Shown one piece after another: positions 1-27,108 of a stretch of DNA of 27,108 nucleotides. The notes under the pieces are model-generated. The model was not told the origin of the DNA and made no database searches. It saw only the letters and a program-made list of their open reading frames with translations. Numbering within the stretch: position 1 is the first letter of the stretch; each line of letters opens with the position of its first letter. The DNA comes from Pyrinomonadaceae bacterium (GTDB taxonomy: Bacteria; Acidobacteriota; Blastocatellia; Pyrinomonadales; Pyrinomonadaceae), in contig DASPKR010000545.1 in the NCBI GenBank assembly GCA_035627975.1, forward strand, positions 1 to 27,108, given 5' to 3'. Made by a program: the position numbers and the translations under genes.

Positions 1-189
1 GGCGAAGAGGTGATGCGCGTCTTGCTCGACCTCAACGCCTCGGGGCAGACCGTCTTCATGGTCACGCACAACCCCTCGAACGCCGCGCTCGCGCACAGGG
101 TTCTGAACATACGGGACGGGAGGCTCTGCGGCGAGGGAATCGCGCCGGCCGAGACGGCGGAGGCGGCGCCCGAGTTGCTCACCGCCTGA
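1..189 (+). CDS. ABC transporter ATP-binding protein, C-terminal fragment (LolD/MacB-like), truncated at window edge
   Basis: Frame 1 reads GEEVMRVLLDLNASGQTVFMVTHNPSNAALAHRVLNIRDGRL...LTA*, stop TGA 187-189. The VTH switch motif followed by the R(V)xxxRDG tail is typical of LolD/MacB-type ATPases. Not in the ORF track because the start is outside the window. Confidence 0.85.
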   Translation, partial: GEEVMRVLLDLNASGQTVFMVTHNPSNAALAHRVLNIRDGRLCGEGIAPAETAEAAPELLTA

Positions 190-204
190 CGAACAGGGGG
201 AATC

Positions 205-2373
205 GTGAGGCTTATAATTTTATCTTTCATCATCCTGCTCGCGGGGCCGGCCGCGTCGGGGCAGAGCGTCTTCAGTGTGACCGTCAAAGACCAGGAGACG
301 CGCGAGCCCGTGCCCGGCGCGACCGTCTCGGTGAAGGGGACGGAGATTTCGGCGACGACCGACGCGCGGGGCGTCGCGCGGCTCGAAGGCGTCCCCGACG
401 GCGAGCAGACCGTCGAGATTTTCTCGGCCGGCTACGAGACCAAAGAGCTTAAGCTCACCTTCCCGGCGGCGGCGGCCGACGGCGAGGTCTTCATCAAGGT
501 CAACAACGACCTCGGCGAGGTGACGGTCGTCGAGACTACACGCACGGGGCGCGAGATAGACGACGTGCCCACGCGCGTCGAGGCCATAGACGAGGAAGAG
601 ATCGGCGAGAAGATGAGCATGCGCCCGGCCAACGTCTCGATGGTCTTGAACGAGAGCACCGGGATAAAAGTGCAGCAGACCAGCGCGACCACGCAGACGC
701 AGAGCGTGCGCATACAGGGCCTCGACGGCCGCTACACGCAGATTCTCAAGGACGGCTTCCCCGCCTTCGGCGGCTTCTCCGGCAGCCTCGGCGTGCTAGA
801 CATCCCGCCGCTCGACTTGAAGCAGGTCGAGATAGTCAAAGGCCCGGCGGCGACCTTCTACGGCGGAGGGGCGATTGCGGGCGTCATCAACTTCATCAGC
901 CGGCAGCCGGAGGAGGAGCCCGTCACGAACATGATCTTCAACGCGACCTCGGCCGGGGGCCTCGACTTCTCCGTCTTCGACGCCCGCCGCCTCGGCCGCC
1001 ACGGCTACACGCTGCTCGGCTCCGTCAACCTACAGCGCGAGTACGACGCTGACTCCGACGACTTCACGGAACTGCCCCGCGCCCGCTCGTTCAACGTCGC
1101 GCCGCGCCTCTTCTTCTCGCTCGGTGGGAGGGCGCGCCTGACAATCGGGAACTCGACCTCCTACCAGAGCCGCGAGGGCGGCGACGTGCAAGTCATACGC
1201 GGCCGCGCGGACGAGCAACACCGCTACTCGGAGCGCAACGACTCGCTGCGCAACATCACGACCTTGCAGCTCGACCGCGAGCTGTCCGCCGGCCGCAGGC
1301 TCGTCGCGCGCCAGAGCCTCGCCCTCTTCACGCGCGAGATAGAAATCCCCGGCTACCGATTCGACGGCCGACAGTTCAACTCCTACACCGACATCTCCTA
1401 CTTCCACCCCGTCGGGGGCCACGCCCTCGTCTTCGGCTTCAACGCCGCGCACGACGGCTTCTCCGAGCGCGGCGCCGTCGCCGGCACGGGCGCGCGCGAC
1501 GAGAGCCGCACGACCTTCGGCGGCTACGCGCAGGACAGCTTCGCCGTCACCGAGAAGTTATCGCTCGAAGCCGGCTTCCGCCTCGACCACGTCCGCGGCT
1601 ACGGCGCCTTCGCGCTGCCGCGCGTCTCCGCGCTCTACCGCTTCACCGGCCGCTTGAGCAGCCGCTTCACCGTCGGTTTCGGCTACAAGGCGCCGAGCAT
1701 CTTCACAGAAGAGGCGGAGACTTTGCTCTTCCGCGGCGTCCTGCCCGTCGGGAACTCTCTGAAAGCTGAGCGCAGCCGCGGCGGCACCTTCGACGTGAAC
1801 TACCGAGGCACGGCCGGCGAGAAGTTCTCCTACTCACTTAACCAGATGTTCTTCTACACCGAAATTGAAGACCCGCTCGTCCTGACGGCCGGGCCGGGCG
1901 GCACGTTCCGTTTCATCAACGCCGCGCGCCCCGTCGCGAGCGCCGGCTTCGAGTCGAACGCGCGCCTCTCATACGACTTCGTAAAGCTCTTCGCCGGCTT
2001 CACCTTCACCAGCGCGAAGGCGAAGTACCTAGCGGGCGACCGGACACTCGCGCTCACGCCGAAGGGCAGGCTCAACTCCGCCCTGCTCTTCGAGCGCGAG
2101 GAGAATTTCAAGGCGGGCGTCGAGGCTTACTACACGAGCGGCCAGCTCCTCACAGACCGCTCCCGCGCGCGCGCCTTCTGGGTCGTGGGCCTCTTCGGCG
2201 AAAAGACTTTCGGCAAGTACAGCCTCTTCTTCAACGCCGAGAACGTCACGGATACGCGGCAGGGCCGCTTCGGCACGGTCGTCTTCCCGCCGCGACAGAA
2301 CCCGACCTTCGCGGAGATTTACACCCACACCGAGGGGCGCGTCTTCAACGGCGGTGTCAAGGTGAGGCTCTGA
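205..2373 (+). CDS. TonB-dependent outer-membrane receptor with N-terminal carboxypeptidase-regulatory-like domain
   Basis: 722 aa. Signal peptide; N-terminal VTVKDQETREPVPGATVSVKGT...TTDARG domain; plug motifs (VRIQGLDGRYTQILKDG, QVEIVKGPAATFYGGGAIAGVINFIS); beta-strand-rich barrel; C-terminal GRVFNGGVKVRL. Confidence 0.92.
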   Translation: MRLIILSFIILLAGPAASGQSVFSVTVKDQETREPVPGATVSVKGTEISATTDARGVARLEGVPDGEQTVEIFSAGYETKELKLTFPAAAADGEVFIKVNNDLGEVTVVETTRTGREIDDVPTRVEAIDEEEIGEKMSMRPANVSMVLNESTGIKVQQTSATTQTQSVRIQGLDGRYTQILKDGFPAFGGFSGSLGVLDIPPLDLKQVEIVKGPAATFYGGGAIAGVINFISRQPEEEPVTNMIFNATSAGGLDFSVFDARRLGRHGYTLLGSVNLQREYDADSDDFTELPRARSFNVAPRLFFSLGGRARLTIGNSTSYQSREGGDVQVIRGRADEQHRYSERNDSLRNITTLQLDRELSAGRRLVARQSLALFTREIEIPGYRFDGRQFNSYTDISYFHPVGGHALVFGFNAAHDGFSERGAVAGTGARDESRTTFGGYAQDSFAVTEKLSLEAGFRLDHVRGYGAFALPRVSALYRFTGRLSSRFTVGFGYKAPSIFTEEAETLLFRGVLPVGNSLKAERSRGGTFDVNYRGTAGEKFSYSLNQMFFYTEIEDPLVLTAGPGGTFRFINAARPVASAGFESNARLSYDFVKLFAGFTFTSAKAKYLAGDRTLALTPKGRLNSALLFEREENFKAGVEAYYTSGQLLTDRSRARAFWVVGLFGEKTFGKYSLFFNAENVTDTRQGRFGTVVFPPRQNPTFAEIYTHTEGRVFNGGVKVRL

Positions 2374-2428
2374 CAAGGGGCAGTCAGGGAGGCCCGTGCC
2401 ACATCCACGAACTATTTTCAACTTCCGC

Positions 2429-2460
2429 TTGACACTGTACTCGTCTCCAGGGTCTAGACT
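2429..2460 (+). promoter_or_regulatory. MerR-family (ZntR/CadR-like) promoter-operator P1: TTGACA-20 bp-TAGACT
   Basis: TTGACA 2429-2434, spacer CTGTACTCGTCTCCAGGGTC (20 nt, imperfect dyad CTG..CAG), TAGACT 2455-2460. RBS GGAGGG 2497-2502 precedes ATG 2508. Identical to P2 at 21 of 32 positions. Confidence 0.75.
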
Positions 2461-2507
2461 CTCATTCGTGGGCCGGCAATGCCCGAAAATTTCTACGGAG
2501 GGCGGTC

Positions 2508-4016
2508 ATGAGAATCTTAATTTTCGGCACTTGGCGCTTGCGCGTGCTCCTGCTGGCATCGGCAATTCTATACGCCGCCGCGCCGGAGGCGGCGGGGCAG
2601 CATCACCACGACCCACCCGTCGCGCGGCCGACCCCAACCGCGACACCGAAACCAACTCCCGCGCCGAAGCCCACGCCCGCGGAGGCCGTCGTAGCACCCG
2701 GCCGCCCCGCGCAGGCGACCACGGGCGGCGCGGCGCATGATCATAGTGCCCACGGCCAGGGTGCGGAGGTCACGAAATCCGCCGAGGGCGACAGCCCGCA
2801 CGGTGGGCACAGCGCCGGTGACGTGCCGATGACGAGCCGCGACGGCTCCGGCACTTCATGGCAGCCCGCCTCTACGCCCGCCTACATGCTCCACAAGCGC
2901 GCGGGGGGATGGCTGCTGATGCTGCACGGCGAGGCGAAAGTGGGCGTCAACTCGCAGGGCGGGCCGCGCGGCGTCACGAAGTTCGAGTCTCAGAACTGGC
3001 TCATGCCGATGGCGACGAGGGAGGCCGGGCGCGGCACGCTCGAACTGCGCGGCATGTTCAGCCTGGAACCTCTTACCTACTCGGGCGCCGGCTCGCCGCA
3101 ACTCTTCCAGTCGGGCGAGGTCTATCAGGGGCGGCCCATAGTGGACGCACAGCACCCGCACGACCTGCTGATGGAGCTGTCGGCGCGCTACACGCTGCCG
3201 GTCGGTGACCGCGGCTCCTGGTTCGCCTACTTCGGCTACCCGGGCGAGCCCGCCCTGGGTCCCGTCGCCTTCATGCACCGCGCGTCGGCCGCGGAGAACC
3301 CGTCGGCGCCGCTCGCACACCACCTTCAGGACTCGACGCACATCTCGTTCGGCGTCTTCACGACCGGCTTCACCTACCGCTGGCTGAAGGTGGAGGGCTC
3401 GGTCTTCAACGGGCGCGAGCCGGACGAAGAGAGGTACGGCTTCGAGGCCGGGCCTTGGAACTCGCGCTCGGTTCGCGTCTCCGTGGCGCCGAACAAGAAC
3501 TGGGCCCTCCAGTACTCCTATGGGTTCCTGAAGAACCCGGAGCTGCTGCACGAGGGCGACACTCACCGCCAGACGGCGTCAATTCAGTACAACAGGCCGC
3601 TCGCGCGCGGGAACTGGGCGACGAGCCTGGTCTGGGGGCGCAACCGCGAGGGCGACGAGGGCCACACCTTCAGGCTCAACAGCTACACGCTGGAATCCAC
3701 GCTCAACTTCGCGGGCAAGAACTACATCTACACGCGCCTGGAGCTGGTGGATAAGAAGGACATCCTCCGGCCCGAGGACCTGCCTAAGCTGGGGCTCGGG
3801 GAGCACGCGCACCCCCAGTTCCGCATAGGTGCCTACAGCTTCGGCTACGTGCGCGACCTCTACGCGGGCGACAAGTACTCCCTGGGCCTGGGCGGCGACA
3901 CGACCTTCTACTCGAAGCCGGAAGCCCTCGACGTGCTCTACGGCAAGAGCCCGGTCTCGTGGAAGGGGTTCCTCCGAATACGGCTCGGGGGCAGGGGCGC
4001 GGGCCACGGGATGTGA
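2508..4016 (+). CDS. Uncharacterised exported His-rich protein, probable outer-membrane beta-barrel
   Basis: 502 aa. Signal peptide ending AAG-Q; His clusters (QHHHD, AHDHSAHG, PHGGHS) around a Pro/Thr linker; SRDGSGTSWQP motif; then alternating amphipathic strands (WALQYSYG, TASIQYN, ATSLVWG, YTLESTLNF, YSFGYVRD). Barrel assignment is inferred from the pattern. Confidence 0.7.
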   Translation: MRILIFGTWRLRVLLLASAILYAAAPEAAGQHHHDPPVARPTPTATPKPTPAPKPTPAEAVVAPGRPAQATTGGAAHDHSAHGQGAEVTKSAEGDSPHGGHSAGDVPMTSRDGSGTSWQPASTPAYMLHKRAGGWLLMLHGEAKVGVNSQGGPRGVTKFESQNWLMPMATREAGRGTLELRGMFSLEPLTYSGAGSPQLFQSGEVYQGRPIVDAQHPHDLLMELSARYTLPVGDRGSWFAYFGYPGEPALGPVAFMHRASAAENPSAPLAHHLQDSTHISFGVFTTGFTYRWLKVEGSVFNGREPDEERYGFEAGPWNSRSVRVSVAPNKNWALQYSYGFLKNPELLHEGDTHRQTASIQYNRPLARGNWATSLVWGRNREGDEGHTFRLNSYTLESTLNFAGKNYIYTRLELVDKKDILRPEDLPKLGLGEHAHPQFRIGAYSFGYVRDLYAGDKYSLGLGGDTTFYSKPEALDVLYGKSPVSWKGFLRIRLGGRGAGHGM

Positions 4017-4064
4017 GGGGCGAAAATTCGCCCCGCAAATTTTTAAGGGCTCGAAAAATACCTG

Positions 4065-4096
4065 TTGACTCTGTAGTGCAGTACAGACTTTATACT
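4065..4096 (+). promoter_or_regulatory. MerR-family promoter-operator P2: TTGACT-20 bp-TATACT with dyad TCTGTA-gTGCAg-TACAGA
   Basis: TTGACT 4065-4070; perfect half-sites TCTGTA 4070-4075 and TACAGA 4082-4087; TATACT 4091-4096. An elongated spacer containing a dyad is the established MerR-activated promoter architecture, and merR lies directly downstream. Confidence 0.88.
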
Positions 4097-4183
4097 GGGA
4101 ACAGCTTGTGACGGGAGGTTGGCTAAGTGATGCGTGATACGAGCCGAGGCGCGAGGACGGTAGGCGAGGAGGAGGGGCGGCGG

Positions 4184-4636
4184 ATGCTCAAGATCGGCGA
4201 CGTCTCCAAACGGAGCGGCATCGGCGTCGAGGCGCTCAGGTTCTACGAGAAGAGCGGGCTGCTGGATAAGCCGTCGCGCACCTACAGCGGCTACCGCGTT
4301 TACGGCGAGGAGGTGCTGGAGCGGCTGGCCTTCATCAAGCGGGCGCAGGCGCTCGGCTTCTCCCTCGAGGAGATAAGGCAGATTGTGGACGACGCCCGGA
4401 GGGGTGAGAGCCCCTGCGAGGAGGTGCGCGAGATAGTCCGGCGCCGCATGGAGGAGCTCGACGAGCGGCTGCGCGAGCTGCACCGCTACAGGAAGGAACT
4501 CAAGCACACGCTAGAAGAGTGGGACAAGGTGGGGCGCGCGCCCGGCCACATCTGCGGGCTCATCGAGGGCTCGGAGGTCAGGCACGCCGCACACCACAAG
4601 GGGGAAGGGCTGAAGCGAGGGAAGCGCGGGGCCTGA
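4184..4636 (+). CDS. MerR-family heavy-metal-responsive transcriptional regulator
   Basis: 150 aa from ATG 4184 (strong SD GAGGAGGAGG upstream). wHTH MLKIGDVSKRSGIGVEALRFYEKSGLL...SGYRVY; LAFIKRAQALGFSLEEI; coiled-coil helix; C78, H122, C124 and a His-containing tail. Confidence 0.93.
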   Translation: MLKIGDVSKRSGIGVEALRFYEKSGLLDKPSRTYSGYRVYGEEVLERLAFIKRAQALGFSLEEIRQIVDDARRGESPCEEVREIVRRRMEELDERLRELHRYRKELKHTLEEWDKVGRAPGHICGLIEGSEVRHAAHHKGEGLKRGKRGA

Positions 4637-4687
4637 AAGCCCCGCGGCGGGCGGGGCTCCCCGGCGACGGGGGAAGGGAGTCCGAAG

Positions 4688-6982
4688 ATGCAAGCAACAT
4701 CTGCGACGAAAGAAGAGTCAGTTGACCCGGTGTGCGGGATGACGGTCGTCCCGGCGAAGGCCGCCGGGACGAGCGAGCGCGACGGCGTGCGTCACTACTT
4801 CTGCTCGCGAGGGTGTAAGGAGAGGTTCGACTCGGCGGGCGCCGGCGCCGCGCACGAGGGTCACGGTCACCGCGGCCACGTCATGAACGAGCCGGAGCAG
4901 GCCCGCCAAGCTCCGCGCGGCGGCGATGCCCGGGAGGCGCAGGCCGAGAGCTATCGCACGATGATGCGGAAGTTCTGGTTCGCGGCCGCCGTCGGCGCCC
5001 CGCTGCTACTGCTGATGTTCGCGGAGTTCGTCCCCGCGTGGCAGCACGCGCTGATGCCGTACCACCGCCTGATAGGTATGGCCTCCGCCGCGCTGACTCT
5101 GCCGGTGCTCGCGTGGTCGGGCCGGCAGTTCTTCGAGAGCGCGTGGAACGGCCTGCTCAACCACAACACGAACATGGACACGCTGGTCGCGCTCGGCACG
5201 GGCGCGGCCTGGGCATACTCGGCCGCGGCCGTCGCGGCGCCGGGCCTCTTTCCCGAAGGCACCGGGGGGATGTACTTCGAGGTGGCGGTCATCGTCATCG
5301 CGCTCATACTGCTCGGGCAGGCGCTCGAGATGAGGGCGAAGAGCCGTTCGAGCGCGGCGCTCAGGAAGCTGCTCGAGCTACAGGCGAAGACCGCGCGCGT
5401 CGTCCGCGGCGGCCGCGAGGTTGACGTGCCCATAGAGGAGGTGGTGGTCGGCGACACGGTGCTCGTCCGCCCCGGCGAGAAGGTGCCGGTGGACGGCGTC
5501 ATCATTGACGGCGAATCGGCGGTTGACGAGTCAATAGTGACCGGCGAGTCCGTCCCCGTGGATAAGAAGCGGGGCGACGGGGTCATCGGCTCGAGCGTCA
5601 ACAAGACGGGCGCGTTCACCTTCCGCGCGACGAAGGTCGGGGCCGATACGGCGCTCGCGCGCATTGTCGAGATGGTCGAGCGCGCGCAGAGCTCCAAGCC
5701 TCCGATTGGAAGACTGGTGGACAAGGTCAGCTCCTACTTCGTGCCGACGGTGATGATACTCGCCGTGCTGACGTTCCTGGCCTGGTTCAACTTCGGCCCC
5801 GAGCCCGCCGTCAACCACGCCGTCGTGACGATGGTCGCGGTGCTCGTCATCGCCTGCCCGTGCGCGCTCGGCCTGGCGACGCCCATCAGCTTGATGGTGG
5901 GCGTGGGGAAGGCGGCCGAGCACGGCGTGCTCATACGCAACGGCGAGGCGCTCGAGACCGCCTCCAGGCTCACGACCGTGGTGCTCGACAAGACGGGCAC
6001 TATTACGAAGGGCAAGCCGGAGCTGACCGACGTGCTGCCGCTCGAAGGCTTCGCGGAGGGCGAGCTGCTCCGCCTCGCCGCGACCGCGGATCGGCGGAGC
6101 GAGCACCCGCTCGCGGAGGCAATCGTGAGCGGCGCGCGCTCGCGCGGCGTCACGCTCGGCGAGCCGGAGGAGTTCGAGGCGGTGCCGGGCCACGGCGTCG
6201 AGGCGACGGTCGAAGGCATGAGCGTGGCCGTCGGCAACCGGAAGCTGATGGAGAGGGCGGGCGTTGACGCCTCGGCCTTCGAGCCGGCGGCGGCCGGGCT
6301 AGCAGACGAGGGCAAGACGCCGATGTTCGTCGCCGTCGGGGGCCAGCCGGCCGGCGTCGTGGGCGTCGCCGACACGCTAAAGGAAGACTCCGTGGAGGCC
6401 GTGCGCGCCCTGCGCTCGATGGGCATTGACGTGGTGATGATAACCGGCGACAACGAGCGCACGGCGCGCGCCATCGCGCGCCAGGCCGGCATCGAGCAGG
6501 TGCTGGCCGAGGTGCTGCCCGAGGAGAAAGCGCGGCAGGTCGAGAGGTTGCAGGCCGAAGGCCCGCCGCGCGGGGGGCGCAGGGCCCGCGGCGCGCGCCT
6601 CGTCGGGATGGTGGGAGACGGCATCAACGACGCGCCGGCGCTCGCGCAGGCCGACGTGGGCTTCGCCGTAGGGACGGGGACGGACGTCGCCATAGAGGCG
6701 GCTGACGTGACGCTCGTCGGCGGGAGTTTGAGGGGCGTCGTCACGGCGATAGAGGTCTCGCGGGCGACGCTGCGCAACATAAAGCAGAACCTGTTCGGCG
6801 CCTTCATCTACAACGTGCTCGGCATCCCCGTGGCGGCGGGCGTCTTCTACCCGCTCTTCGGGGTGCTGCTCTCGCCCATCATCGCGGGGGCGGCGATGGC
6901 CGCGTCTTCCATAACGGTCGTGACGAACGCGAACCGCCTTCGGCTCTTCGGGCCGCGGCGCGCGGGGGAGGTGAGAGGATGA
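4688..6982 (+). CDS. copA: Copper/silver-translocating P1B-1 ATPase with N-terminal YHS-type metal-binding domain
   Basis: 764 aa. DPVCGM...YFCSRGC (YHS/TRASH), His-rich linker, [38 protein letters not shown] (FIYNVLGIP) and MAASS. The CPC/YN/MxxSS set is the established Cu(I)/Ag(I) signature. Confidence 0.95.
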
Positions 6983-7425: not shown

Positions 7426-7445
7426 TAAGGGCTAATGGTTTCTTG

Positions 7446-7535
<90 letters not shown>

Positions 7536-7559
7536 TTCAGTTCTGAGTCGGCGCGCCAG

Positions 7560-8072
7560 ATGAGAAGACTGCTGTTGACAATCTCGGCCCTCGGCCTGCT
7601 GTGCGCCGTCGCGGCGGCGGCCGGCGACGCTTCGGCGCAGAGGCGCGGCAGGGCTCGTCCCCGCCCCGTCTGCGGCGACCCGACCGTGAGGTGCCGCACG
7701 ACCGCAGTGTTCCAGCCGCACCAGTTGCCCTTCGAGGTCTCGGCCAGCGACGTTATAGTCGAGAGCGAGCCGTTCTACATGGTCATACTCAAGAGCGTGC
7801 GCGACACGGCGCAGGACGGCACGGTCTTCGTCCCCGAGGACGAGCGCCTTGAGGCGCAGAAGCTCTTCCCGCGCCACAAGGTCTTCGCCTCGCGCGGCTA
7901 CGAGCCCGACGAGCTCTACTACGAGGGTACGGCCGAGGGGCAGCAGTTCATGGCCGTCTTCGCGGGACGCACGCGCGCCGAGGCCGGGCGCGTGCTCGCC
8001 AGGGTGCGGGCCACGGGCAAGTTCCCCGGCGCGAACCTGCGGCGCACGCGCACTGGCTTTAACGGCACGTAA
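7560..8072 (+). CDS. Secreted hypothetical protein, possible SPOR-like C-terminus
   Basis: 170 aa from ATG 7560. Signal peptide MRRLLLTISALGLLCAVAAAAGDASA-Q; Cys pair CGDPTVRC; C-terminal strand-helix-strand (FMAVFAGRTRAEAGRVLARVRATGKFPGANLRR) resembles SPOR, which is inference. Confidence 0.7.
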   Translation: MRRLLLTISALGLLCAVAAAAGDASAQRRGRARPRPVCGDPTVRCRTTAVFQPHQLPFEVSASDVIVESEPFYMVILKSVRDTAQDGTVFVPEDERLEAQKLFPRHKVFASRGYEPDELYYEGTAEGQQFMAVFAGRTRAEAGRVLARVRATGKFPGANLRRTRTGFNGT

Positions 8073-8744: not shown

Positions 8745-10832
8745 ATGTCCTACCAAGTCATCGCGCGCAAGTGGCGGCCGCAGACCTTCGAGGAGGTCAC
8801 GGGGCAGGAGCACATCACGCGGACGCTGCGCAACGCCGTCGAGCACGAGCGCCTCCACCACGCCTACCTATTCTCGGGCGCCCGCGGCGTCGGGAAGACC
8901 ACCACGGCGCGGCTGCTGGCGAAGGCCGTCAACTGCCACAAGTCCGACAGGCCGACCCCTACGCCCTGCCGCTCGTCTGACCCGGCGGCTTGCCCGTCCT
9001 GCCGCGAGATAGCCGAGGGCCGTTCGATAGACGTGCTCGAGATTGACGCCGCGTCGAACACCGGCGTTGACAACGTGCGCGACGCCATCATCAACACCAT
9101 CGGCGTGCGCGCCGCCCGCGACCGCTACAAGGTCTTCATCATTGACGAAGTCCACATGCTCTCGACGCCGGCCTTCAACGCGCTCTTGAAGACTCTGGAA
9201 GAGCCGCCGCCCCGCGTGCTCTTCATCATGGCGACGACGCACGCGCACAAAGTCCCCGAGACCATCCTCTCGCGCAGCCAGCAGTTCGAGTTCCGCACCA
9301 TCGCCGCCTCGAAGATAGCCGAGCGCCTCCGCCTCATCGCCGACGCCGAGAAGATTGACGTGAGCGACGACGCGCTGCGCGAGGTGGCGCGCGCCGGCGA
9401 GGGCTCGATGCGCGACGCGCAGTCGGCCTTCGACCAGGTCATCAGCTTCAGCGAGGGCCGGATAGAGGCGGCCGACGTCGAGGCCGCGCTCGGCCTCGCG
9501 GGAACGGAGCTTCTCTCGCGCGTGATGCGCGCCGTCGCCGACGCTAAGCCGGCCGAAGCCCTCGCGGTAGTTGATGACCTCGTGGCTCGCGGCCACGACC
9601 TTAGGAACTTCTGCCGCGACCTGCTCGCGCACCTGCGCGGCCTGCTGGTCGTCAAGGTCGCGGGCGACTCGTCGCCGCTCGCCGACATCACCGAGGCCGA
9701 GCGCAGGGAACTCTCCGCGGAGGCGCGCGACTTCTCCGAGTCCGACATCGTCCGCTTCTTCCACAGCCTTACAGAGACGGAGGCGCGCCTGCGCGAGAGC
9801 GCGCACCCGCGCTACCAGTTAGAGATCGGGCTGGTGAAGCTCATCGAGATGCGCCGGCTCGCGCCGCTCTCGCAGATAGTCGAGCGTCTGGGCGCGCTCG
9901 AAGCCGCCCTCCGCAACGGGGGAGGCACAGGAAGCCCCGGCGCGCAGACGCCGCCCGCCAGCGCCCCCGCCGCCGGCACTCCCTCGCGCGCGGGCGGTCG
10001 TGGCGGCGGCGCGGCCTCTTTCTCCGCCGCCGAGCCCGGGCCGCAGCCGCAAGCCCCGAGCGCCTCGGCGCCCGCCCGCACTTCGGCCGAGACCTTTAAC
10101 GCGCCGCCGTCAATCGCCGCCGCGCCGCCGAGCGCGACGGCGCCCGCCCCCTCGAACTTCGGCGCGGGCCGCGCCGCGACCGCCTCGACGCCGAACCTGA
10201 AGCTCGTCCCGCCGTCGAGCGGCGGCGCGCGCACGTCGGACGTACCCTTCCCCGTCGCCGGCCCCGAAGGCCCCCCCGAGCCGCTCTCGTTCTTCGAGGA
10301 GGTGCGCGCGGGCGAAGACCGCGTGGGCCAGCCCGTCTCGCTAAGGCCCGCGAGCGCGCCTTCGCCGGCCGGCGCGACCGCCTCCGGGCCTGCGCGGGGG
10401 GGGGCGCGCGAGGCGCAGGCCGACGACGCCGCGAGCCGCATCAAGCGGGGACTGGAAGAGCGCTCGAAGCCTTTACTCGCGGCCGCCGTGGACGGCGCGC
10501 GCCGCGTGCTCACAGAAGGCGAAGAGGTTTACGTCGAGTTCGCGCCCGACACGAAACACCTGCGCGACACGCTCTCGCGGCCGGAGAACATGAGGCTGCT
10601 GCGCGAGGCCTGCTGCCAGGCGCTCGGCCGGCAGGTCGGCGTGCGCGTCGAGGTTCGTGTGCCGGGCGAGTCGGACGACGTGCCGCTCACGCGGCAGGAC
10701 GAGGAGCGGCTCGAGCAGCAGCGCCTCCGCGAGTTCGCCGAGAACCACCCTCTCGTGCAGAAGGTCTTAAAGACGTTCCGCGCCGAGATAATCGAGGTCA
10801 AGCGCATAGACGGCGGCCAGCAGCAGCAGTAG
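8745..10832 (+). CDS. dnaX: DNA polymerase III subunit gamma/tau
   Basis: 695 aa. ARKWRPQTFEEVTGQEH, Walker A GARGVGKTT, EIDAASN, IIDEVHMLS..AFNALLKTLEEPP, GSMRDA; long Pro/Ala linker; C-terminal tau-type helical domain. Confidence 0.98.
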   Translation: MSYQVIARKWRPQTFEEVTGQEHITRTLRNAVEHERLHHAYLFSGARGVGKTTTARLLAKAVNCHKSDRPTPTPCRSSDPAACPSCREIAEGRSIDVLEIDAASNTGVDNVRDAIINTIGVRAARDRYKVFIIDEVHMLSTPAFNALLKTLEEPPPRVLFIMATTHAHKVPETILSRSQQFEFRTIAASKIAERLRLIADAEKIDVSDDALREVARAGEGSMRDAQSAFDQVISFSEGRIEAADVEAALGLAGTELLSRVMRAVADAKPAEALAVVDDLVARGHDLRNFCRDLLAHLRGLLVVKVAGDSSPLADITEAERRELSAEARDFSESDIVRFFHSLTETEARLRESAHPRYQLEIGLVKLIEMRRLAPLSQIVERLGALEAALRNGGGTGSPGAQTPPASAPAAGTPSRAGGRGGGAASFSAAEPGPQPQAPSASAPARTSAETFNAPPSIAAAPPSATAPAPSNFGAGRAATASTPNLKLVPPSSGGARTSDVPFPVAGPEGPPEPLSFFEEVRAGEDRVGQPVSLRPASAPSPAGATASGPARGGAREAQADDAASRIKRGLEERSKPLLAAAVDGARRVLTEGEEVYVEFAPDTKHLRDTLSRPENMRLLREACCQALGRQVGVRVEVRVPGESDDVPLTRQDEERLEQQRLREFAENHPLVQKVLKTFRAEIIEVKRIDGGQQQQ

Positions 10833-21266: not shown

Positions 21267-22445
21267 TCACTTGCCGAGGGCGGGCTGGTAGCTGCCCTCT
21301 GGGCGGGCGGCGGCGCGGGGTGTCGTCTGGGCGGGCTGCCCGGCGGCGCGCAGGGGGATTTCGATTGTGACGAGGGTGCCGCCGCGCGGGTCGTCGGCCA
21401 TCTCGAAGTTGTAGTCGGCGCCGTAAAGCTGTTCGAGCCGCGCGCGCGTGTTCGCGAGGCCGACGCCCGTCTGCGAAGCCTTGCCGGCCCGCGCGCCCGC
21501 CGTCAGGCCCGGCCCGTCGTCCCTCACCTGAAGGCTTAAGACTGCGCCGCGCCGCTCGGCCTTTATCTCCACGCGGCCGGGCGCGGAGCGCGTGGCGATG
21601 CCGTGGCGTATCGCGTTCTCGACGATGGGCTGGAGGATGAGGTTGGGGACGCGGCAGTTAAGCGCGAGCGGGTCAACGTCTATGCTTGTGGTCAGCCTAT
21701 CGCAGAAGCGTATGCGCTCGATGCCGAGGTAACATTCGAGGAACTCGAGTTCCTGCCTGAGCGGCACCTCCTGCGCGGCGGCCGTATCGAGCGTCAGGCG
21801 CAGGAAGTCACCGAGCCGCGCGATCATTCGGTCGGCCGCACCGGGGTCTTTGTGCACCAGGGCCGAGATGGAGTGCAGCGCGTTGAAGAGGAAGTGCGGG
21901 TGTAGCTGCATCTTCAGGGCCTGCAACTGCGCCTGCGACGCGCGCAGCTCGCCCTCTCGGTAGCGCTGGTGGTAGTCGAGGGCGTGGCTCACGAGGACGA
22001 CGATGCAATAGACAAGGAGCTGCTTGTCGAAGTTAGCGAACACCAGCCGCGCGAGGTTCGACGGCGTGAGCGTGCTCAGGTTCCCCGAGAACCACAGGTC
22101 GAGCGTGACGTGGCACGCGGCCCACGCGGCCGCGATGGTTGTGCCGGCGGCGAAGTGGACGAGCAGCCGCCGCCGCCAGTTGTTGCGCTCGACGCGGAAG
22201 CGGCGCGCGAGCCACAGCACCAGCGGGGTGCCGGCCGCGAACACCCACGAGGCCAGAACCTGCCACGCTATCGCGCGCGTGAGAGGCACGGGCTTCTGCG
22301 TGCGTATGAAGTAGAAGTAAATCTGGCTCGAGAAGAAGAGCCCCACGAGCGTCCACAGGCCCCAGATGAAACCGAGCCGTGCCGCCCCGTGCCGCCAGTC
22401 CCCGCCGCCGCTTCTTACGGCGGCCCTTTCGTCGAGCTCGAACAT
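21267..22445 (-). CDS. LytS/YehU-family membrane sensor histidine kinase
   Basis: 392 aa. N-terminal TM helices; LQALKMQLHPHFLFNALHSI; VPLRQELEFLECYL.IE.IRF; N-box QPIVENAIRHG; DDGPG; GVGLANTRARL. Confidence 0.93.
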   Translation of the reverse strand: MFELDERAAVRSGGGDWRHGAARLGFIWGLWTLVGLFFSSQIYFYFIRTQKPVPLTRAIAWQVLASWVFAAGTPLVLWLARRFRVERNNWRRRLLVHFAAGTTIAAAWAACHVTLDLWFSGNLSTLTPSNLARLVFANFDKQLLVYCIVVLVSHALDYHQRYREGELRASQAQLQALKMQLHPHFLFNALHSISALVHKDPGAADRMIARLGDFLRLTLDTAAAQEVPLRQELEFLECYLGIERIRFCDRLTTSIDVDPLALNCRVPNLILQPIVENAIRHGIATRSAPGRVEIKAERRGAVLSLQVRDDGPGLTAGARAGKASQTGVGLANTRARLEQLYGADYNFEMADDPRGGTLVTIEIPLRAAGQPAQTTPRAAARPEGSYQPALGK

Positions 22446-22596
22446 AGCGGCCCAATAATCTCAACAACGCACGCCTAAGACAAGGCGCGCCACGGCCGCA
22501 CGTAAAAAACAGGGCGGCGCCGTGGATTAACGTACTTCTTTTTGGAATTCTGCGCGATTACGGGGTGTCGGAGGGGCGATTTGGTGCGCTGCTCGC

Positions 22597-22821
22597 TCAC
22601 ATGCCGAGCACGCTGCTCAGGGCCTCCCAGACGCGGCGGGCCTCTTCGCCGTGTACGACCACTTCATTCGTGCCGGGGCGCCCCTGCGCGGGAGGGTTCG
22701 TGTCGAAGATGATGCTCAAGACCTCATGCCCCTCCGCGTCCTGGTAGGCCACGTACTGAATCCTGTCTATGTTGACCAGCAGCGTAGCCCCGTCCTCTCG
22801 CGTCGCGGTGATGAAAGGCAT
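22597..22821 (-). CDS. Small hypothetical protein (74 aa)
   Basis: Natural-looking composition; 19 nt downstream of the ROK gene on the same strand; fills the gap. Confidence 0.7.
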   Translation of the reverse strand: MPFITATREDGATLLVNIDRIQYVAYQDAEGHEVLSIIFDTNPPAQGRPGTNEVVVHGEEARRVWEALSSVLGM

Positions 22822-22840
22822 CGGGCTACTCCGTGGGCGC

Positions 22841-23794
22841 TCAGCGCGCGTCGCGGGCGAGGAGGGCGGCGCCGATGGGGACGGCGTCGGCGCCGAGGGA
22901 GGCGGCGAGTATCTGCGTGGACTCGAAGCAGGGCTGGAAGGAGCGGCGGCCCGCCTCGCGTATGATGGGGTTCAGGATAAGCTCGCCGGCGTCCATGACG
23001 CCGCCGCCGAGGACTACGCGCTCGATGTTGAGGAGGTTGATGACGGCGGCGACGGCCGTGCCGATGTAGCGGCCCGTGCGCTCAATCATCAGTAGCGCGA
23101 AGTCGTCGCCGCCCCTCGCCTCGTGCGCGATGTCGGCGGCGGTGAAGTTCTTCGTCAGGCCGAGGCGCGAGAGCGAAGAGGTCGAGTCGCGCAGCAGCCG
23201 CTCGTGCGTGCGTCGGACGATGTTCGGCGCCGACGCGACCGTTTCCAGACACCCGACGTTGCCGCACGCGCACTCGACGCCTTCGGGGTCAATCGTGATG
23301 TGGCCGAACTCGCCCGCGAAGCCGGAGGCGCCGCGCCACAGCCGCCCGTCGAGAATGATTGCGCCCCCTATCCCCGTCCCGATTGTGACGTAGAACATGT
23401 CGCGGCTGCCGCGCCCGGCGCCGACGGCGTGCTCGCCCACGGCGCCCGCGTTCGCGTCGTTGTCGAGCACGACGGGGAGGCCGGTCGCCTGCCTCAGCTC
23501 CTCGCGGAAGTCGCCGCGCACGACCGAGGGCAGGTCGGACGAGATGATGACGCGCCCCGTGCGCGGGTTGACGAGGCCGGGCAGGCCGACGCCCACGGCG
23601 GCCACGCCCGAGGGGGAAGCGTCGCGGAGCTGCGCGGCGGCGCGGGCGACCTGCTGCGAGACTTCGGATTCGGAGAGCGCGGCCTCGAAGCGCTCGAGGA
23701 CGCGGCCCGAGGCCGAGACGAGCGCGGCGCGCAGGGCCGTCCCCGAAAGCTCTACGCCGACGTAATGCTCTTCGTTTGGCGGCGCGGCGGTCAT
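22841..23794 (-). CDS. ROK-family sugar kinase (glucokinase-like), no HTH
   Basis: 317 aa. DNDANAGAVGE, GTGIGG, AGEFGH, Zn motif CACGNVGCLE, VLGGGV. The N-terminal motif is ELSGT rather than DxGGT. Confidence 0.92.
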   Translation of the reverse strand: MTAAPPNEEHYVGVELSGTALRAALVSASGRVLERFEAALSESEVSQQVARAAAQLRDASPSGVAAVGVGLPGLVNPRTGRVIISSDLPSVVRGDFREELRQATGLPVVLDNDANAGAVGEHAVGAGRGSRDMFYVTIGTGIGGAIILDGRLWRGASGFAGEFGHITIDPEGVECACGNVGCLETVASAPNIVRRTHERLLRDSTSSLSRLGLTKNFTAADIAHEARGGDDFALLMIERTGRYIGTAVAAVINLLNIERVVLGGGVMDAGELILNPIIREAGRRSFQPCFESTQILAASLGADAVPIGAALLARDAR

Positions 23795-23858
23795 CCGAGA
23801 AGCCCTTCCCTTGTCGAGTGATTTAAACGGTTAAGACGGCCGGCGAGAATTCGGCGCG

Positions 23859-23911
23859 ATGGTAACAAGAGGTTCGGGGGGCTGTCAAACAACACCCTCT
23901 GCGTGTAGAAT
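23859..23911. promoter_or_regulatory. Overlapping divergent sigma70-type promoters (ROK operon on -, USP operon on +)
   Basis: Minus: TTGACA (23888-23883), 18 nt, extended -10 TG-T-TACCAT (23867-23859). Plus: CTGTCA (23882-23887), 18 nt, TAGAAT (23906-23911). Confidence 0.6.
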
Positions 23912-23957
23912 GCAGCGCGGGGCGTTCGTCATCCCGCGCCCGTCCCCGCGGTCGCCT

Positions 23958-24419
23958 ATGCGAATCAGCACGATACTCCTGCCGACGGACTTCAGCGAGT
24001 GCGCGCGCCACGCCGTCCCGGCCGCGGCGCACCTCGCGCGGCTGCAGGGCGCGCGCGTCATCTGCCTGCACGTCGTCGAGCCCGTCGTGCCTTCGGTCGG
24101 GTGGACGCCGATAGCCGAGCCGCTCCCCGTCGCGGACATAAGCGAGCAGTTGGAGACTTCGGCGGCGAGCGAGCTGCCGAAGTTCGCCGGCTGCGAGGAG
24201 TTCGAGGGGCTCGACGTGGAAGACCTGATAGTGCACGGCGAGGCGTCGGCCGAGATAGTCAACGTCGCGCGCGCGCGCGGCGCCGACCTCATCGTCATCT
24301 CTTCGCACGGGCGCACGGGCCTGGGCCGCATAATCTTCGGCTCGACGGCAGAGTCGGTGGTCCGCCACGCGCCCTGCCCCGTGCTCGTCGTCAAGCCGCC
24401 GCACGGAAGTGATGAGTGA
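23958..24419 (+). CDS. Universal stress protein (single USP domain)
   Basis: 153 aa from ATG 23958. ILLPTDFSECA, LHVVEP, ADLIVISSHGRTGLGRIIFGSTAESVVRHAPCPVLVVK. Confidence 0.95.
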   Translation: MRISTILLPTDFSECARHAVPAAAHLARLQGARVICLHVVEPVVPSVGWTPIAEPLPVADISEQLETSAASELPKFAGCEEFEGLDVEDLIVHGEASAEIVNVARARGADLIVISSHGRTGLGRIIFGSTAESVVRHAPCPVLVVKPPHGSDE

Positions 24420-24489
24420 CGGGCGAAGGGTGACGAGTTAAAGCAAACTGCCTTGACCCGTCGCCCGTCGCCCCTCACTCATCACTCAT
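24408..24489. repeat. Heptamer-tandem inverted-repeat element between usp and dedA
   Basis: Left arm AGTGATG-AGTGACG-GGCGAAG-GGTGACG-AGT (24408-24438) matches right arm 24456-24486 at 27 of 31 positions; 17-nt loop. The left arm includes the USP stop codon. Confidence 0.88.
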
Positions 24490-24492
24490 TTT

Positions 24493-25218
24493 ATGGACTT
24501 ACAGTACGTCAACAACATTCTGGCGTCGTTCGGGCTGCCGGCCATCTTCGTTCTGACGATGCTGGAGGGCGACATAACGCTTCTGCTCGCGGGGGTTCTG
24601 GCGCACGGGCAGGCGTTCGGCGACTACAGCTTCGCGCAGGTGCTCGCGACGGGGACGCTCGGCGGCGTGGTGAGCGACAACGTCGCCTACTTCCTCGGCC
24701 GCGGCGCCCGCTCGGGCGTCAAGAAGTACCGCTTCTACTGCATGGCGCGCCCGCGCATCGAGCGGCTGACGGACAAGTTCGGGCCGCTCTCCATCTTCGT
24801 CTCGAAGTACACATACGGCCTGCGCTGGGGCGCGTGCGCCTTCTACGGCGTGGCGAAGATGCCCTACGGGCGCTTCCTGCTGCTCTCCTTCGCGAGCTGC
24901 TTCGTGTGGGTGCTGAGCCTGGCGGGCGTCGGCTACGTCTTCCACAGCGCCATCTACAACCTCATCGGCGACTTCAAGCACGTCGGCGTCGTGCTGCTCG
25001 TTATCATCGCCCTGGGCATAGCCGGCTTCTACTTCGCCGAGCGCTACTGGCTCTCGAAGAAGGTCGAGGAGGCAGACCCGGAGCGCATACACAAGCTCGA
25101 GCAGGCCGCCGGGGACAAACTCAACGAGATCAAAGAGGAGATACAGGAGATATTCCCCCACCCGCTCTCGCGCCACAAGGAGCCGCCCAAGCGCAAGGGC
25201 AAGGCGGAGGGGGACTAG
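24493..25218 (+). CDS. DedA-family (VTT domain) membrane protein
   Basis: 241 aa. LEGDITLLLAGVLA, GGVVSDNVAYFLGR, SIFVSKYTYGLR, YGRFLLLSFASCFVW; charged C-terminal tail. Confidence 0.93.
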   Translation: MDLQYVNNILASFGLPAIFVLTMLEGDITLLLAGVLAHGQAFGDYSFAQVLATGTLGGVVSDNVAYFLGRGARSGVKKYRFYCMARPRIERLTDKFGPLSIFVSKYTYGLRWGACAFYGVAKMPYGRFLLLSFASCFVWVLSLAGVGYVFHSAIYNLIGDFKHVGVVLLVIIALGIAGFYFAERYWLSKKVEEADPERIHKLEQAAGDKLNEIKEEIQEIFPHPLSRHKEPPKRKGKAEGD

Positions 25219-25222
25219 GAGA

Positions 25223-25296
25223 GGCGACGAGTGACGAGTGACGGGCGGCGAGCCGGCATAGCTCGTCACTCGTCACTCGTCACTCGTCACTCGTCA
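25223..25296. repeat. Heptamer-tandem inverted-repeat element between dedA and the GHMP kinase; five perfect CTCGTCA copies
   Basis: Left GGCGACG-AGTGACG-AGTGACG-GGCGGCG-AGC (25223-25253); 7-nt loop; right (CTCGTCA)x5 at 25262-25296. Confidence 0.93.
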
Positions 25297-25304
25297 CTTT
25301 CTTT

Positions 25305-26312
25305 ATGATTATCGAATCCACAGCACCGACCCGCGTTGACCTCGCCGGGGGGACTATAGACATCTGGCCGCTGTACCTTTTCCACCCCGGCGCGAGCACC
25401 GTCAACTTCGGCATCACACTGAACGCGCGCGTCCGCATAGAGACGCGCGACGACGACCAGGTCATACTCGAATCCAGGGATCGCGCCGTCTCCTTCGAGA
25501 CGAGCCTCTCGGAGATCGAGAGCCTCGCGCGCGAGGAGCGACTTGAGCTCATCTCCAAGCTTGTGCACTTCTTCAAACCGGAGACCGGCTTCAACTTGAT
25601 CGCGGAGTCTGCCGCGCCCGCGGGCGCCGGCCTCGGCGGCTCCAGCTCGCTCGCAATAGCCTGCATCGGCGCGCTCAACCGCCTGTGCGGCGACCGCTAC
25701 CCCGAGCGGAAATTCATCATCATCGCAGCCAACGTCGAGACGACCGTGATACGCGTCCCCGCGGGGTTCCAGGACTACTACGGCGCCTTCTACGGCGGCG
25801 CCAACTGCGTAGAGTTCAGCGCCGAGGGCATCAGGCGCGAGCCCGTCAACCTGGACGCGGCGGAGTTGGAGCGGCGCCTGGTCATAATCTACACGGGCGA
25901 GCCGAGGCTTTCGGGGACGAACAACTGGGAGATTTTCAAGAAGCACATAGACGGCGACCGCGAGCTGTTCGGCCTCTTCGAGGGGATACGCGACTCGGCC
26001 CGGCTGATGAGGGTCGCGCTCGCCGCGAACGACTGGCGGAGGGTGGGCGAGATAATGCGCGAGGCTTACCCGAACCGTAAGCGGCTCGCCCCGAACGTGA
26101 CGACGCCGCACATGGACGCGCTGGTGGGGCGAGCGCTCGCTAACGGCGCCGTGGCCGCGAAGGTCTGCGGCGCGGGCGGCGGCGGCTGCATCGCTTTCCT
26201 CTGCGAGGAGGGCGCGAAGGAGTCTGTCGAGTCGGCGCTCGCCGCCGAGGGCGGCGCGGAGGTCTTGCGCTGGAGCTTCTCCCGCGACGGCCTCGTCGTC
26301 CGCGAGCTTTAG
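25305..26312 (+). CDS. GHMP-family sugar kinase (HddA / fucokinase-like)
   Basis: 335 aa. APTRVDLAGGTIDI, PAGAGLGGSS, GFQDYY, KVCGAGGGGC. Substrate not determinable from sequence by eye. Confidence 0.9.
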   Translation: MIIESTAPTRVDLAGGTIDIWPLYLFHPGASTVNFGITLNARVRIETRDDDQVILESRDRAVSFETSLSEIESLAREERLELISKLVHFFKPETGFNLIAESAAPAGAGLGGSSSLAIACIGALNRLCGDRYPERKFIIIAANVETTVIRVPAGFQDYYGAFYGGANCVEFSAEGIRREPVNLDAAELERRLVIIYTGEPRLSGTNNWEIFKKHIDGDRELFGLFEGIRDSARLMRVALAANDWRRVGEIMREAYPNRKRLAPNVTTPHMDALVGRALANGAVAAKVCGAGGGGCIAFLCEEGAKESVESALAAEGGAEVLRWSFSRDGLVVREL

Positions 26313-26335
26313 ACGGCAGCCGGCCGCAAAAGGCT

Positions 26336-26378
26336 AGAGGGTTGACGACAGCTCGACTGTCGTCAACCCTCTTTCTTC
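26336..26378. terminator. Intrinsic terminator between convergent genes
   Basis: AGAGGGTTGACGACAG (26336-26351) / CTGTCGTCAACCCTCT (26357-26372) is a perfect 16-bp stem, followed by TTCTTC. Confidence 0.85.
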
Positions 26379-26397
26379 ATCCCGAAATCTCCGGCGC

Positions 26398-27108
26398 TTA
26401 GAGTTTGCCGGAGGCGCGCTTGGCCTCTTCGGCGATGCGCTTGAGGCGCGCTATCTTCTGCTCGGGCGTCTCGCCCGGCGGGGCCTTGAGCAACTCGGGC
26501 GGGATTTTGAAGCCGGCGCCGGAAGCCTTCTTGGGCTTGGCCTCGGCGGGCTTCGCCTCCGCCGTCGCGGGCCTCTCGTCCTTCGGCGCGCCGGGCGTCA
26601 GTTCCGTCGAGGCTTCGGGCGCGAGGTCTGAGACGGTCTCCGCGCCCGCGGCGGGCGAGGCGGTCGCGGCGGCCGGGCTCATCGGCGCGGCCGAAGCCCG
26701 GCCCGTCGCCGCCTGAGCCTCCGCGGCCGGGCGGTGTTTGTCGGCCGAGGGGGAAGAGTCTGCCGGGGACGCGGCGGCCGGGGCCTTCGCCGCGGGCGCG
26801 GGCTTGACTGCTTTAACAGGTTTCGGCTTGGGCTCGCCGCGCCACGCGGGCGTGGGGTAGTCGTATGCGGGGAGCGTGCCGCCCGCGGCCTGTAGAATAG
26901 CCGCGAGGTCGCGCTCGACGTAGCGCCGCTGCTTGCGCGGGTCGCGCACGTGGCCCATCGGCGGCCCCATGTAGAGCGCGCCGCAGGTCTGGCACTGGTA
27001 GAGCACGTCGTCGCCGCGCAGGTAAGCCGCCGAAGGGTGGCGCGTATCTTTCTGCTTGAGGTGGCCGATGCAGAGCTTGCCCTTCTCGTTCTTCTCGTTG
27101 CAGACGGT
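26398..27108 (-). CDS. Hypothetical protein with putative zinc-binding module and Ala/Pro-rich linker, 5' end outside the window
   Basis: The frame stays open past the ORF-track start to the window edge: TVCNEKNEKGKLCIGHLKQ...DDVLYQCQTCGALY..., then a PKPKP/APAAKAP low-complexity linker and a short helical C-terminus. Confidence 0.75.
   Translation of the reverse strand, partial: TVCNEKNEKGKLCIGHLKQKDTRHPSAAYLRGDDVLYQCQTCGALYMGPPMGHVRDPRKQRRYVERDLAAILQAAGGTLPAYDYPTPAWRGEPKPKPVKAVKPAPAAKAPAAASPADSSPSADKHRPAAEAQAATGRASAAPMSPAAATASPAAGAETVSDLAPEASTELTPGAPKDERPATAEAKPAEAKPKKASGAGFKIPPELLKAPPGETPEQKIARLKRIAEEAKRASGKL

Follow-up and report, generated by a model that had tools for sequence, protein, structure and literature searches.

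Near-complete loss of the degenerate palindrome RTCGAY from a Pyrinomonadaceae genome, with an AccI-family restriction cassette as a candidate agent

Introduction

Avoidance of palindromic restriction sites in prokaryotic genomes was reportedly described by Gelfand and Koonin in 1997. The present work concerns a stretch of 27,108 nt (hereafter the window) that is part of contig C545 of a metagenome-assembled genome (MAG) of a soil Pyrinomonadaceae bacterium. The degenerate palindrome RTCGAY is absent from this window and nearly absent from the whole source genome (G000). Restriction-site avoidance is known both in prokaryotic genomes and in mobile elements (Rusinov et al. 2018, PMC6286503; Shaw et al. 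2023, PMC10359461). As in the source genome, the short targets of Type II enzymes are rare in the known cases at the level of DNA, independently of reading frame and patchily among relatives. The pattern tracks the restriction-modification (R-M) systems that a lineage carries. G000 differs from usual chromosomes in the depth of the depletion (23- to 30-fold below what codon shuffling and the Markov model predict), in having zero sites in 3.3 Mb of contigs, and in the degenerate motif. It also differs from the known cases in that the cognate genes were not found in the assembly.

The recognition word itself has been described. M.Bbr28III of Bifidobacterium breve is a 5-methylcytosine (m5C) methylase whose RTCGAY specificity was confirmed by bisulfite sequencing (bioRxiv 10.1101/2024.07.15.603628), and B. 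breve UCC2003 has RTCGAY listed as one of its restriction sites (PMC12592239). The main text of Bottacini 2018 does not spell out the motif. The initial annotation of the window had proposed the footprint of a possibly uncatalogued R-M motif; the footprint is indeed of the R-M type, but the B. breve enzyme and strain show that the motif had already been catalogued. The likeness to B. breve is confined to the recognition word. M.Bbr28III is an actinobacterial m5C enzyme, whereas the sole m5C methylase found in the source genome looks SacI-like and the candidate for RTCGAY is an N6-adenine methylase paired with an AccI-family nuclease.

Two further systems are close. The candidate nuclease matches the AccI family (PF09545; GTMKAC), and it adjoins a gamma-class NPPY methylase (compare M.TaqI, M.Eco57I and PF07669). 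The AccI site overlaps RTCGAY at GTCGAC. Unlike AccI, the candidate is carried by genomes (G018, G027) that avoid RTCGAY and do not avoid GTAGAC or GTATAC, so its predicted specificity differs from that of AccI. The other is the SacI-type R-M system (GAGCTC) with a vsr gene. The cassette at loci homologous to that of the G000 methylase consists of vsr, an m5C methylase and a nuclease of about 380 aa with a weak RE_SacI match. In contrast, G000 has no gene for the nuclease, a fatty-acid desaturase gene comes next after the methylase, and GAGCTC is depleted about 2-fold. Literature searches for work on Chloracidobacterium or Acidobacteria returned nothing relevant to R-M or to the avoidance of palindromes.

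Depletion of RTCGAY in the window and the genome

The source assembly comprises 4.34 Mb in 780 contigs, is 81% complete, and has 68% G+C. Judged by the relatives of its DnaX, it belongs to the family Pyrinomonadaceae of the class Blastocatellia (Acidobacteriota). Genes were called from the frame signal of G+C at third codon positions, which gave 3,133 genes. For the codon null, synonymous codons were shuffled inside each gene, with 1000 shuffles for the window genes. Expected hexamer counts were obtained from an order-4 Markov model over the whole genome.

An exact count found 223 TCGA sites in the window and no RTCGAY, with GTCGAC, ATCGAC, GTCGAT and ATCGAT all at zero. This bears out the by-eye claim of the initial annotation that TCGA is abundant and RTCGAY wholly absent. 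Its expectation that about a quarter of the TCGA sites should be RTCGAY was slightly high, as the codon-aware null gives about 16%. Shuffling of the window genes predicted 33.0 ± 3.9 sites, with a minimum of 21. The depletion holds beyond the window, far below expectation under both nulls. All called genes together contain 197 RTCGAY sites against 4577 ± 49 expected, and the whole genome contains 242 for 32,554 TCGA. The contigs that are free of RTCGAY number 630 of 780 and total 3.28 Mb. In the Markov ranking, GTCGAC (observed/expected 0.028) and ATCGAT (0.068) are the two lowest hexamers genome-wide. ATCGAC/GTCGAT is at 0.128, about 8-fold down, and the other non-palindromic class, YTCGAR, is at 1.32 and is not depleted. 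Since YTCGAR is normal, the signal lies in the degenerate palindrome RTCGAY and not in TCGA palindromes generally. The low ATCGAC/GTCGAT together with normal YTCGAR fits one degenerate specificity.

The depletion is seen in every reading frame of the called genes: 167 sites against 3349 expected in frame 0, 4 against 29 in frame 1, and 26 against 1124 in frame 2. The per-frame depletion is thus 7- to 43-fold, and this includes the frames in which replacing C by T alters the protein or introduces a stop. Outside the called genes, 44 of 4364 TCGA sites are RTCGAY. Because all frames and non-coding DNA are affected, the loss acts on the DNA itself and not on codon pairs or translation.

Some of the remaining sites are clustered. 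An open reading frame (ORF) of 1109 aa on contig C132, with no Pfam match, contains 11 in-frame ATC-GAC pairs (Table 1), about 5% of all RTCGAY left genome-wide. It looks like a recently imported gene whose recoding is still to come. Smaller clusters of RTCGAY lie on C571 (14-18.5 kb), C499, C35 and C401.

Substitute words and the route of site loss

Val-Asp and Ile-Asp pairs are written with other codons where RTCGAY would arise. The initial annotation had listed five substitute words in the window, and all five coordinates are correct (Table 1). Genome-wide, GTT-GAC occurs 2749 times against 298 expected and GTC-GAC 61 times against 2047, and ATT-GAC occurs 1317 times against 322 and ATC-GAC 84 times against 1277. 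ATAGAC is at 2.13 times its expectation. GTG-GAC did not rise (797 against 1141). Before GAY, Val is encoded by GTC in 2% of cases (57-78% elsewhere), by GTT in 74% (5% elsewhere) and by GTG in 23%; Ile is encoded by ATC in 3.5%, by ATT in 55% (10% elsewhere) and by ATA in 42%. In the Ser frame R-TCG-AY, TCG has fallen to 1.4%, and TCA makes up 22%, TCC 20% and AGC 52%. By contrast, at GACGTC, which is also avoided, the lost share went mostly to the preferred codon GTG. The excess of GTT is far from equilibrium, which points to slow re-equilibration by transversions over the timescale of the genus.

The same route is seen in orthologous DNA. At 47 positions that are RTCGAY in five non-depleted congeners, none is kept in the window. 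In other TCGA contexts, 42 of 96 and 63 of 174 sites are kept. CpG transitions account for 14 of the 28 single-base differences at the RTCGAY sites, compared with 1 of 26 and 3 of 46 in the controls. C to T is the main route of loss. The initial annotation had noted that RTTGAY and RTCAAY are what m5C deamination would produce, and that synonymous avoidance would fit as well. They are indeed the main replacements, but deamination as their cause is not upheld. The excess of CpG transitions was considered as proof of deamination and rejected, because the direction of change at GTCGAC is ambiguous and only the third base is silent. As a separate observation on codon usage, ATA makes up 33% of the Ile codons, three times the share of ATT, which is unusual for a high-GC bacterium.

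Patchy depletion among relatives

GTCGAC and ATCGAC were counted in 40 genomes of relatives, with samples of 37-200 kb from six of them, and the RTCGAY status of each relative was read from these two counts. Full depletion of RTCGAY is seen in G016, G018, G019, G021, G027, G028, G031, G035, G038 and G039, and partly in G004 and G011. In G003, G006, G007, G013-G015, G022, G024 and G029, only GTCGAC is depleted. GTMKAC is depleted only in G000, G016 and G035. The depletions of RTCGAY, of GTCGAC only, and of GTMKAC are therefore three traits that vary independently. In fact, G018, G027 and G028 have all four RTCGAY words low together and GTAGAC normal. G035 and G039, which are consistent with Chloracidobacterium, are closed two-replicon genomes of 3.7 Mb and are likewise depleted. 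Other congeners (G001, G009, G012, G020, G023) have thousands of sites. Among congeners, GTCGAC ranges from 4 to 906 per Mb and ATCGAC+GTCGAT from 12 to 914 per Mb. This comparison with sister genomes, which had been proposed as a check, shows that the depletion is patchy among close relatives.

A survey of the class covered 301 Blastocatellia genomes, with ATCGAC+GTCGAT per Mb as the gauge of depletion. The density is bimodal across these genomes, and about 30% of the sampled species are depleted. The unpublished genomes G154 and G223 are two among many non-depleted genomes in the survey table that lack the candidate cassette described below; no claim depends on either.

In a quick-search tree of a single gene (lepA, DNA), G000 is sister to G021, and depleted species lie at the base of the genus. 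In a clade of 15 species ATCGAC has come back, and within a sub-clade GTCGAC is returning. Furthermore, the 'non-depleted' congeners have GTCGAC at about half of its expectation and GTTGAC in surplus. Given these basal species and the half-expected GTCGAC, the ancestor of the genus was probably depleted already.

A candidate AccI-family cassette

A search of 41 genomes with the Pfam RE_AccI family matched five. Four of the matched genomes, G018, G027, G035 and G039, are depleted of RTCGAY and belong to three genera and two families. Their nucleases of 326-353 aa are 60-65% identical. The next gene on the same strand, directly after the nuclease, encodes a methylase of the gamma class, with about 500-547 aa and 50-60% identity. 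The pair is at G018:C47:5929-8494 in G018 and at 368.5-370.9 kb of C1 in G035. The nuclease of G018 matches PF09545 above the cut-off, with 62.7 bits. The methylase of G018 matches PF07669, PF02384 and PF22837 and contains the motifs FDPAVGEGAF and IVANPPY, and these families and motifs identify it, at the level of sequence, as an N6-adenine enzyme. The fifth match, in the GTCGAC-only genome G024, is a paralogue of 26-29% identity in convergent orientation.

Relatives of the nuclease with 62-77% identity are found in Acidobacteria, Rubrivivax, Rhodocyclaceae, Clostridia, Chlorobi, Chloroflexi, Lentisphaerae and others, and are annotated as 'AccI family restriction endonuclease'. Six loci from other phyla have the nuclease and then the methylase, in the same order in all. 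A PF09545 nuclease beside a PF07669/PF02384 NPPY methylase was thus found in G018, in G094 and at these six loci, and was not found in G000. The neighbourhoods of the six cassette loci contain RTCGAY at 14 of 520 TCGA sites (2.7%), against 134 of 475 (28%) around four proteobacterial controls (Fisher 2e-32). In an unbiased ranking of all hexamers over the first four cassette loci pooled, GTCGAC (3 against 25.5) and ATCGAC/GTCGAT (6 against 40) are among the most depleted hexamers. The counts of GTAGAC and GTATAC in the six neighbourhoods are small, and no expectation was computed for them. In the carriers G018 and G027, GTMKAC is not avoided (GTAGAC 64 against 63 expected and 24 against 19, respectively).

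The association extends to the class. The nuclease (E ≤ 1e-30) is present in 19 of the 301 genomes, in 11 genera, and in 18 of these carriers the density of ATCGAC+GTCGAT is only 5-93 per Mb. It is 314 per Mb in the nineteenth, G094, compared with roughly 940-1800 in those congeners for which the density was worked out. All 19 carriers are therefore depleted, absolutely or relative to their congeners. In genus g56, three carriers have 10-37 per Mb; of the non-carriers, one is at 737 and two are at about 20. G094 has 40% G+C and is the only carrier within a genus of 46 species (Table 1). ATCGAC is 3- to 6-fold less dense in G094 than in the congeners checked, and this genome is possibly a snapshot of a purge in progress.

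Methyltransferases of the source genome

The initial annotation had stated that no methyltransferase is encoded in the window, and a Pfam scan of its 19 ORFs found none. In the whole MAG, a search with PF00145 found one m5C methylase gene, on contig C668 (Table 1), and searches with PF01555, PF02384, PF07669, PF02086 and PF09545 gave no matches in this 81%-complete assembly. The genome search that the initial annotation had called for thus yielded one m5C gene and no cognate RTCGAY system. PF01555 genes number 1-12 in each of 24 sampled congeners and none in G000. Their absence indicates that accessory regions are under-assembled, and suggests that the fragmented MAG has lost such regions, so that the failure to find a cognate system may reflect either a gap in the assembly or a true absence.

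The C668 methylase has 594 aa and consists of a C5-methylase domain and a C-terminal part of about 250 residues with no family assignment. Immediately upstream is a vsr mismatch-endonuclease gene that overlaps the methylase start. The methylase belongs to a family of about 620 aa that is 57-66% identical over the full length and is found in many phyla. At five homologous loci, the gene after the methylase encodes a conserved protein of 333-387 aa (43-73% identical between loci). One member of this partner family weakly matches the SacI endonuclease (PF09566, E = 0.0018), another has a precomputed weak RE_SacI match, and NCBIfam gave no match. The flanks of the homologous loci contain 0, 1, 0 and 0 GAGCTC sites against 5.4-7.6 expected, and four homologous loci keep RTCGAY at 22-36% of TCGA (24/108, 20/94, 36/100 and 54/173). 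Hence the family is probably specific for GAGCTC, as judged from these flanks. No trace of the SacI-like nuclease was found in G000 by tblastn. The vsr and methylase genes of G000 are thus an orphan pair and leave the RTCGAY purge unexplained.

The vsr-linked methylase was accordingly rejected as the RTCGAY enzyme, because the flanks of its homologues lack GAGCTC and often keep RTCGAY. The loci L118 and L119, the first two at which RTCGAY was at zero, proved to belong to a genome in which many palindromes are avoided. A shared m5C methylase across the depleted relatives was also considered and not found. PF00145 gave no match in the depleted genomes G016, G019, G027, G028, G035 and G039, and where depleted genomes do have m5C genes, these are not orthologues of one another. 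Among the relatives tested, the presence of an m5C methylase does not accompany RTCGAY depletion.

Explanations for the purge

We propose that selection on DNA removed nearly all targets of a Type IIP enzyme that would recognise the degenerate palindrome RTCGAY. The sites would have been lost mainly when the third base of RTC-GAY, the only one open to a synonymous change, went from C to T, and by a switch to other Ser codons in the TCG frame. At GTCGAC this purge would overlap a separate AccI-like (GTMKAC) purge. The most likely agent would be a cassette of two genes in circulation among Blastocatellia and many other phyla: an AccI-family endonuclease (about 320-350 aa) and, after it, an N6-adenine methyltransferase of the gamma class that has an NPPY motif. 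The cassette is predicted to cut unmethylated RTCGAY and to methylate the adenine, and G000 may carry, or may recently have carried, such a system. That the purge is restriction avoidance by selection is highly probable. The fuller reading, in which the purge is a restriction-avoidance footprint and the cassette its most likely agent, is probable. Carriage of the cassette is associated with depletion, and it is rather likely, if a shade less so, that RTCGAY is its target. The chance that the cassette is the agent in G000 itself lies a little short of even. Several points weigh against the role of the cassette. Neither the cassette nor any AccI-family or gamma-class methyltransferase gene was found in G000, an 81%-complete MAG. 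Among the 282 non-carriers, about 71 likewise have fewer than 100 sites per Mb, and some of these are 97-99% complete (G016, G028, G031, G038). The cassette is seen in only about a fifth of the depleted species of the class. The depleted non-carriers indicate that the cassette is not the sole agent, or that the footprint long outlives the gene. Moreover, the putative specificity of the cassette was deduced from avoidance alone, the flank tests cover 17-21 kb per genome, and whole genera are depleted, which makes the genome counts non-independent.

The principal mutational alternative holds that RTCGAY was methylated at m5C, as by M.Bbr28III, and decayed by deamination to RTTGAY and RTCAAY through mutation pressure and not selection. 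The transition products do dominate (GTT-GAC and ATT-GAC in large excess, no rise of GTG-GAC), CpG transitions make up half of the differences at orthologous sites, the MAG encodes a vsr and m5C methylase pair, and the sole characterised RTCGAY methylase is an m5C enzyme. However, frame 0 offers only the third base as a synonymous escape, and the direction of change at GTCGAC is ambiguous, with the genus ancestor probably depleted already. The ratios at which T was gained (at least 6:1 for T over G, and 4.3:1 for T over A) would match the general C-to-T excess of bacteria, which counts against deamination. In the Ser frame, TCC and AGC rose as much as TCA, and the depletion is strong in every frame, including those in which C to T would alter or truncate the protein. 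The m5C family of the MAG pairs with a SacI-like nuclease in genomes without GAGCTC, and the linked Vsr would repair deamination products. Depleted relatives, closed genomes included, have no m5C methylase or have non-orthologous ones, and the best candidate system carries an N6-adenine methylase. Deamination is thus quite improbable as the cause. A sum of SalI-like (GTCGAC), ClaI-like (ATCGAT) and AccI-like (GTMKAC) avoidance, with no single RTCGAY enzyme, would agree with the many GTCGAC-only congeners (G003, G015, G022, G024 and others), with the real and independent GTMKAC avoidance in G000, G016 and G035, and with the somewhat low level of nearly all 6-bp palindromes in G000. It is marginally less probable still, since ATCGAC/GTCGAT falls outside all three enzymes and is yet 8-fold down (ATC-GAC 84 against 1277), G018, G027 and G028 lose all four words together with GTAGAC normal, and YTCGAR is not depleted.

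The selected purge could also be a relic of an RTCGAY system that was lost some time ago, the sites not having regrown and nothing maintaining the avoidance at present. No cognate gene was found in the MAG, depleted taxa are basal in the lepA tree, which suggests an ancestral state, and about 80% of the depleted genomes of the class have no candidate cassette. Recovery is also slow, as the half-expected GTCGAC and surplus GTTGAC of the 'non-depleted' congeners indicate. Against this, G000 has 17 GTCGAC and 37 ATCGAC+GTCGAT per Mb, the same density as the cassette carriers, whereas the 'recovering' congeners G002, G004, G005, G008 and G017 are at an intermediate 170-400 per Mb. The MAG, in 780 contigs and without the PF01555 methylases of all 24 congeners, has under-assembled accessory genes. 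An old relic is therefore unlikely, and a system in the missing ~19% of the genome, or one lost very recently, is favoured over it. The last alternative, codon-pair or translational bias, or an artefact of assembly or library, has a negligible probability. As such a bias would have it, frame 0 is where most of the sites would be expected, in Val-Asp or Ile-Asp pairs, and the initial annotation had named codon-pair bias as a possible refutation. This bias is excluded by the effect in all frames and in non-coding DNA and by the patchiness in close relatives: frame 2 and the DNA outside genes are depleted to an equal degree, and congeners of the same codon usage hold thousands of sites. An artefact is opposed by the orthologous positions, which are substitutions and not contig breaks, and by the closed genomes of relatives, which are equally depleted.

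Other purged words and features of the source genome

More than 15 restriction-type words, RTCGAY among them, have been purged from the source genome. The others include GTAGAC/GTCTAC (observed/expected 0.083), CAGCTG (0.105), GGWCC (0.116), GTATAC (0.13), TGGCCA (0.13), CTGCAG (0.14), TTCGAA (0.15), AGGCCT (0.18) and GACGTC (0.21). GTAGAC/GTCTAC, GTATAC and GTCGAC together make up the GTMKAC of AccI. GTCGAC is subject to both the RTCGAY and the GTMKAC purges, which fits its rank as the most depleted word. The GTMKAC purge is independent of RTCGAY, as GTA-GAC occurs 15 times against 134 expected. A search of G000 for an AccI-type gene that would account for it found none. CTG-GAG occurs 745 times against 1657 expected and CTC-GAA is 4.6-fold above expectation, hinting at avoidance of the CTGGAG type.

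Three ORFs of the window have no Pfam family (Table 1). One of the three encodes a His-rich exported protein that adjoins a MerR-CopA-cupredoxin cluster.

Table 1. Coordinates of substitute words, genes and loci in the window and in other contigs
Feature	Sequence	Position	Strand	Description
GTTGAC	Window	4721..4726	+	Val-Asp as GTT-GAC in copA, the usual stand-in for avoided GTC-GAC
GTTGAC	Window	25335..25340	+	Second Val-Asp as GTT-GAC, GHMP-kinase gene
ATTGAC	Window	9141..9146	+	Ile-Asp as ATT-GAC in dnaX, replacing avoided ATC-GAC
ATAGAC	Window	556..561	+	Ile-Asp as ATA-GAC, TonB-dependent receptor gene
ATAGAC	Window	586..591	+	Second Ile-Asp as ATA-GAC, same TonB-dependent receptor gene
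ORF	Window	2508-4016		No Pfam family
ORF	Window	7443-8072		No Pfam family
ORF	Window	26398-27108		No Pfam family
m5C methylase gene	C668	5550-7334		PF00145 match
vsr and m5C methylase genes	C668	4900-7334		Locus L002
1109-aa ORF	C132	12019-15348		Locus L310
Cassette of G094	G094:C1	155349-157867		Locus L307:7350-9868

Significance

The phenomenon and the motif were already known, and what is new is the assignment to a likely enzyme family. No new kind of biology is revealed. The source genome shows how completely a chromosome can recode to escape one restriction specificity. The effect on codons is large, with 74% of Val-Asp written as GTT-GAC although GTT is used for only about 5% of Val elsewhere in the genome.

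For the AccI nuclease family, RTCGAY is offered as a testable specificity for a large unannotated branch. We tentatively suggest that the cassette (62-77% identical; Acidobacteriota, Chlorobi, Chloroflexi, Clostridia, Proteobacteria) may be an uncharacterised Type IIP system specific for RTCGAY, probably RTCGm6AY. The avoidance may then be a long-lived trait at the level of clades, found in about a third of Blastocatellia species and persisting where the genes are undetectable. If this is true, persistence without detectable genes would imply a sustained or community-level restriction pressure, and not a resident system in each genome. The class Blastocatellia, to which the cultivable Chloracidobacterium belongs, can be flagged as a lineage rich in R-M footprints. 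For transformation of these bacteria, incoming DNA with RTCGAY, GTMKAC, CAGCTG or CTGCAG sites would probably be cut.

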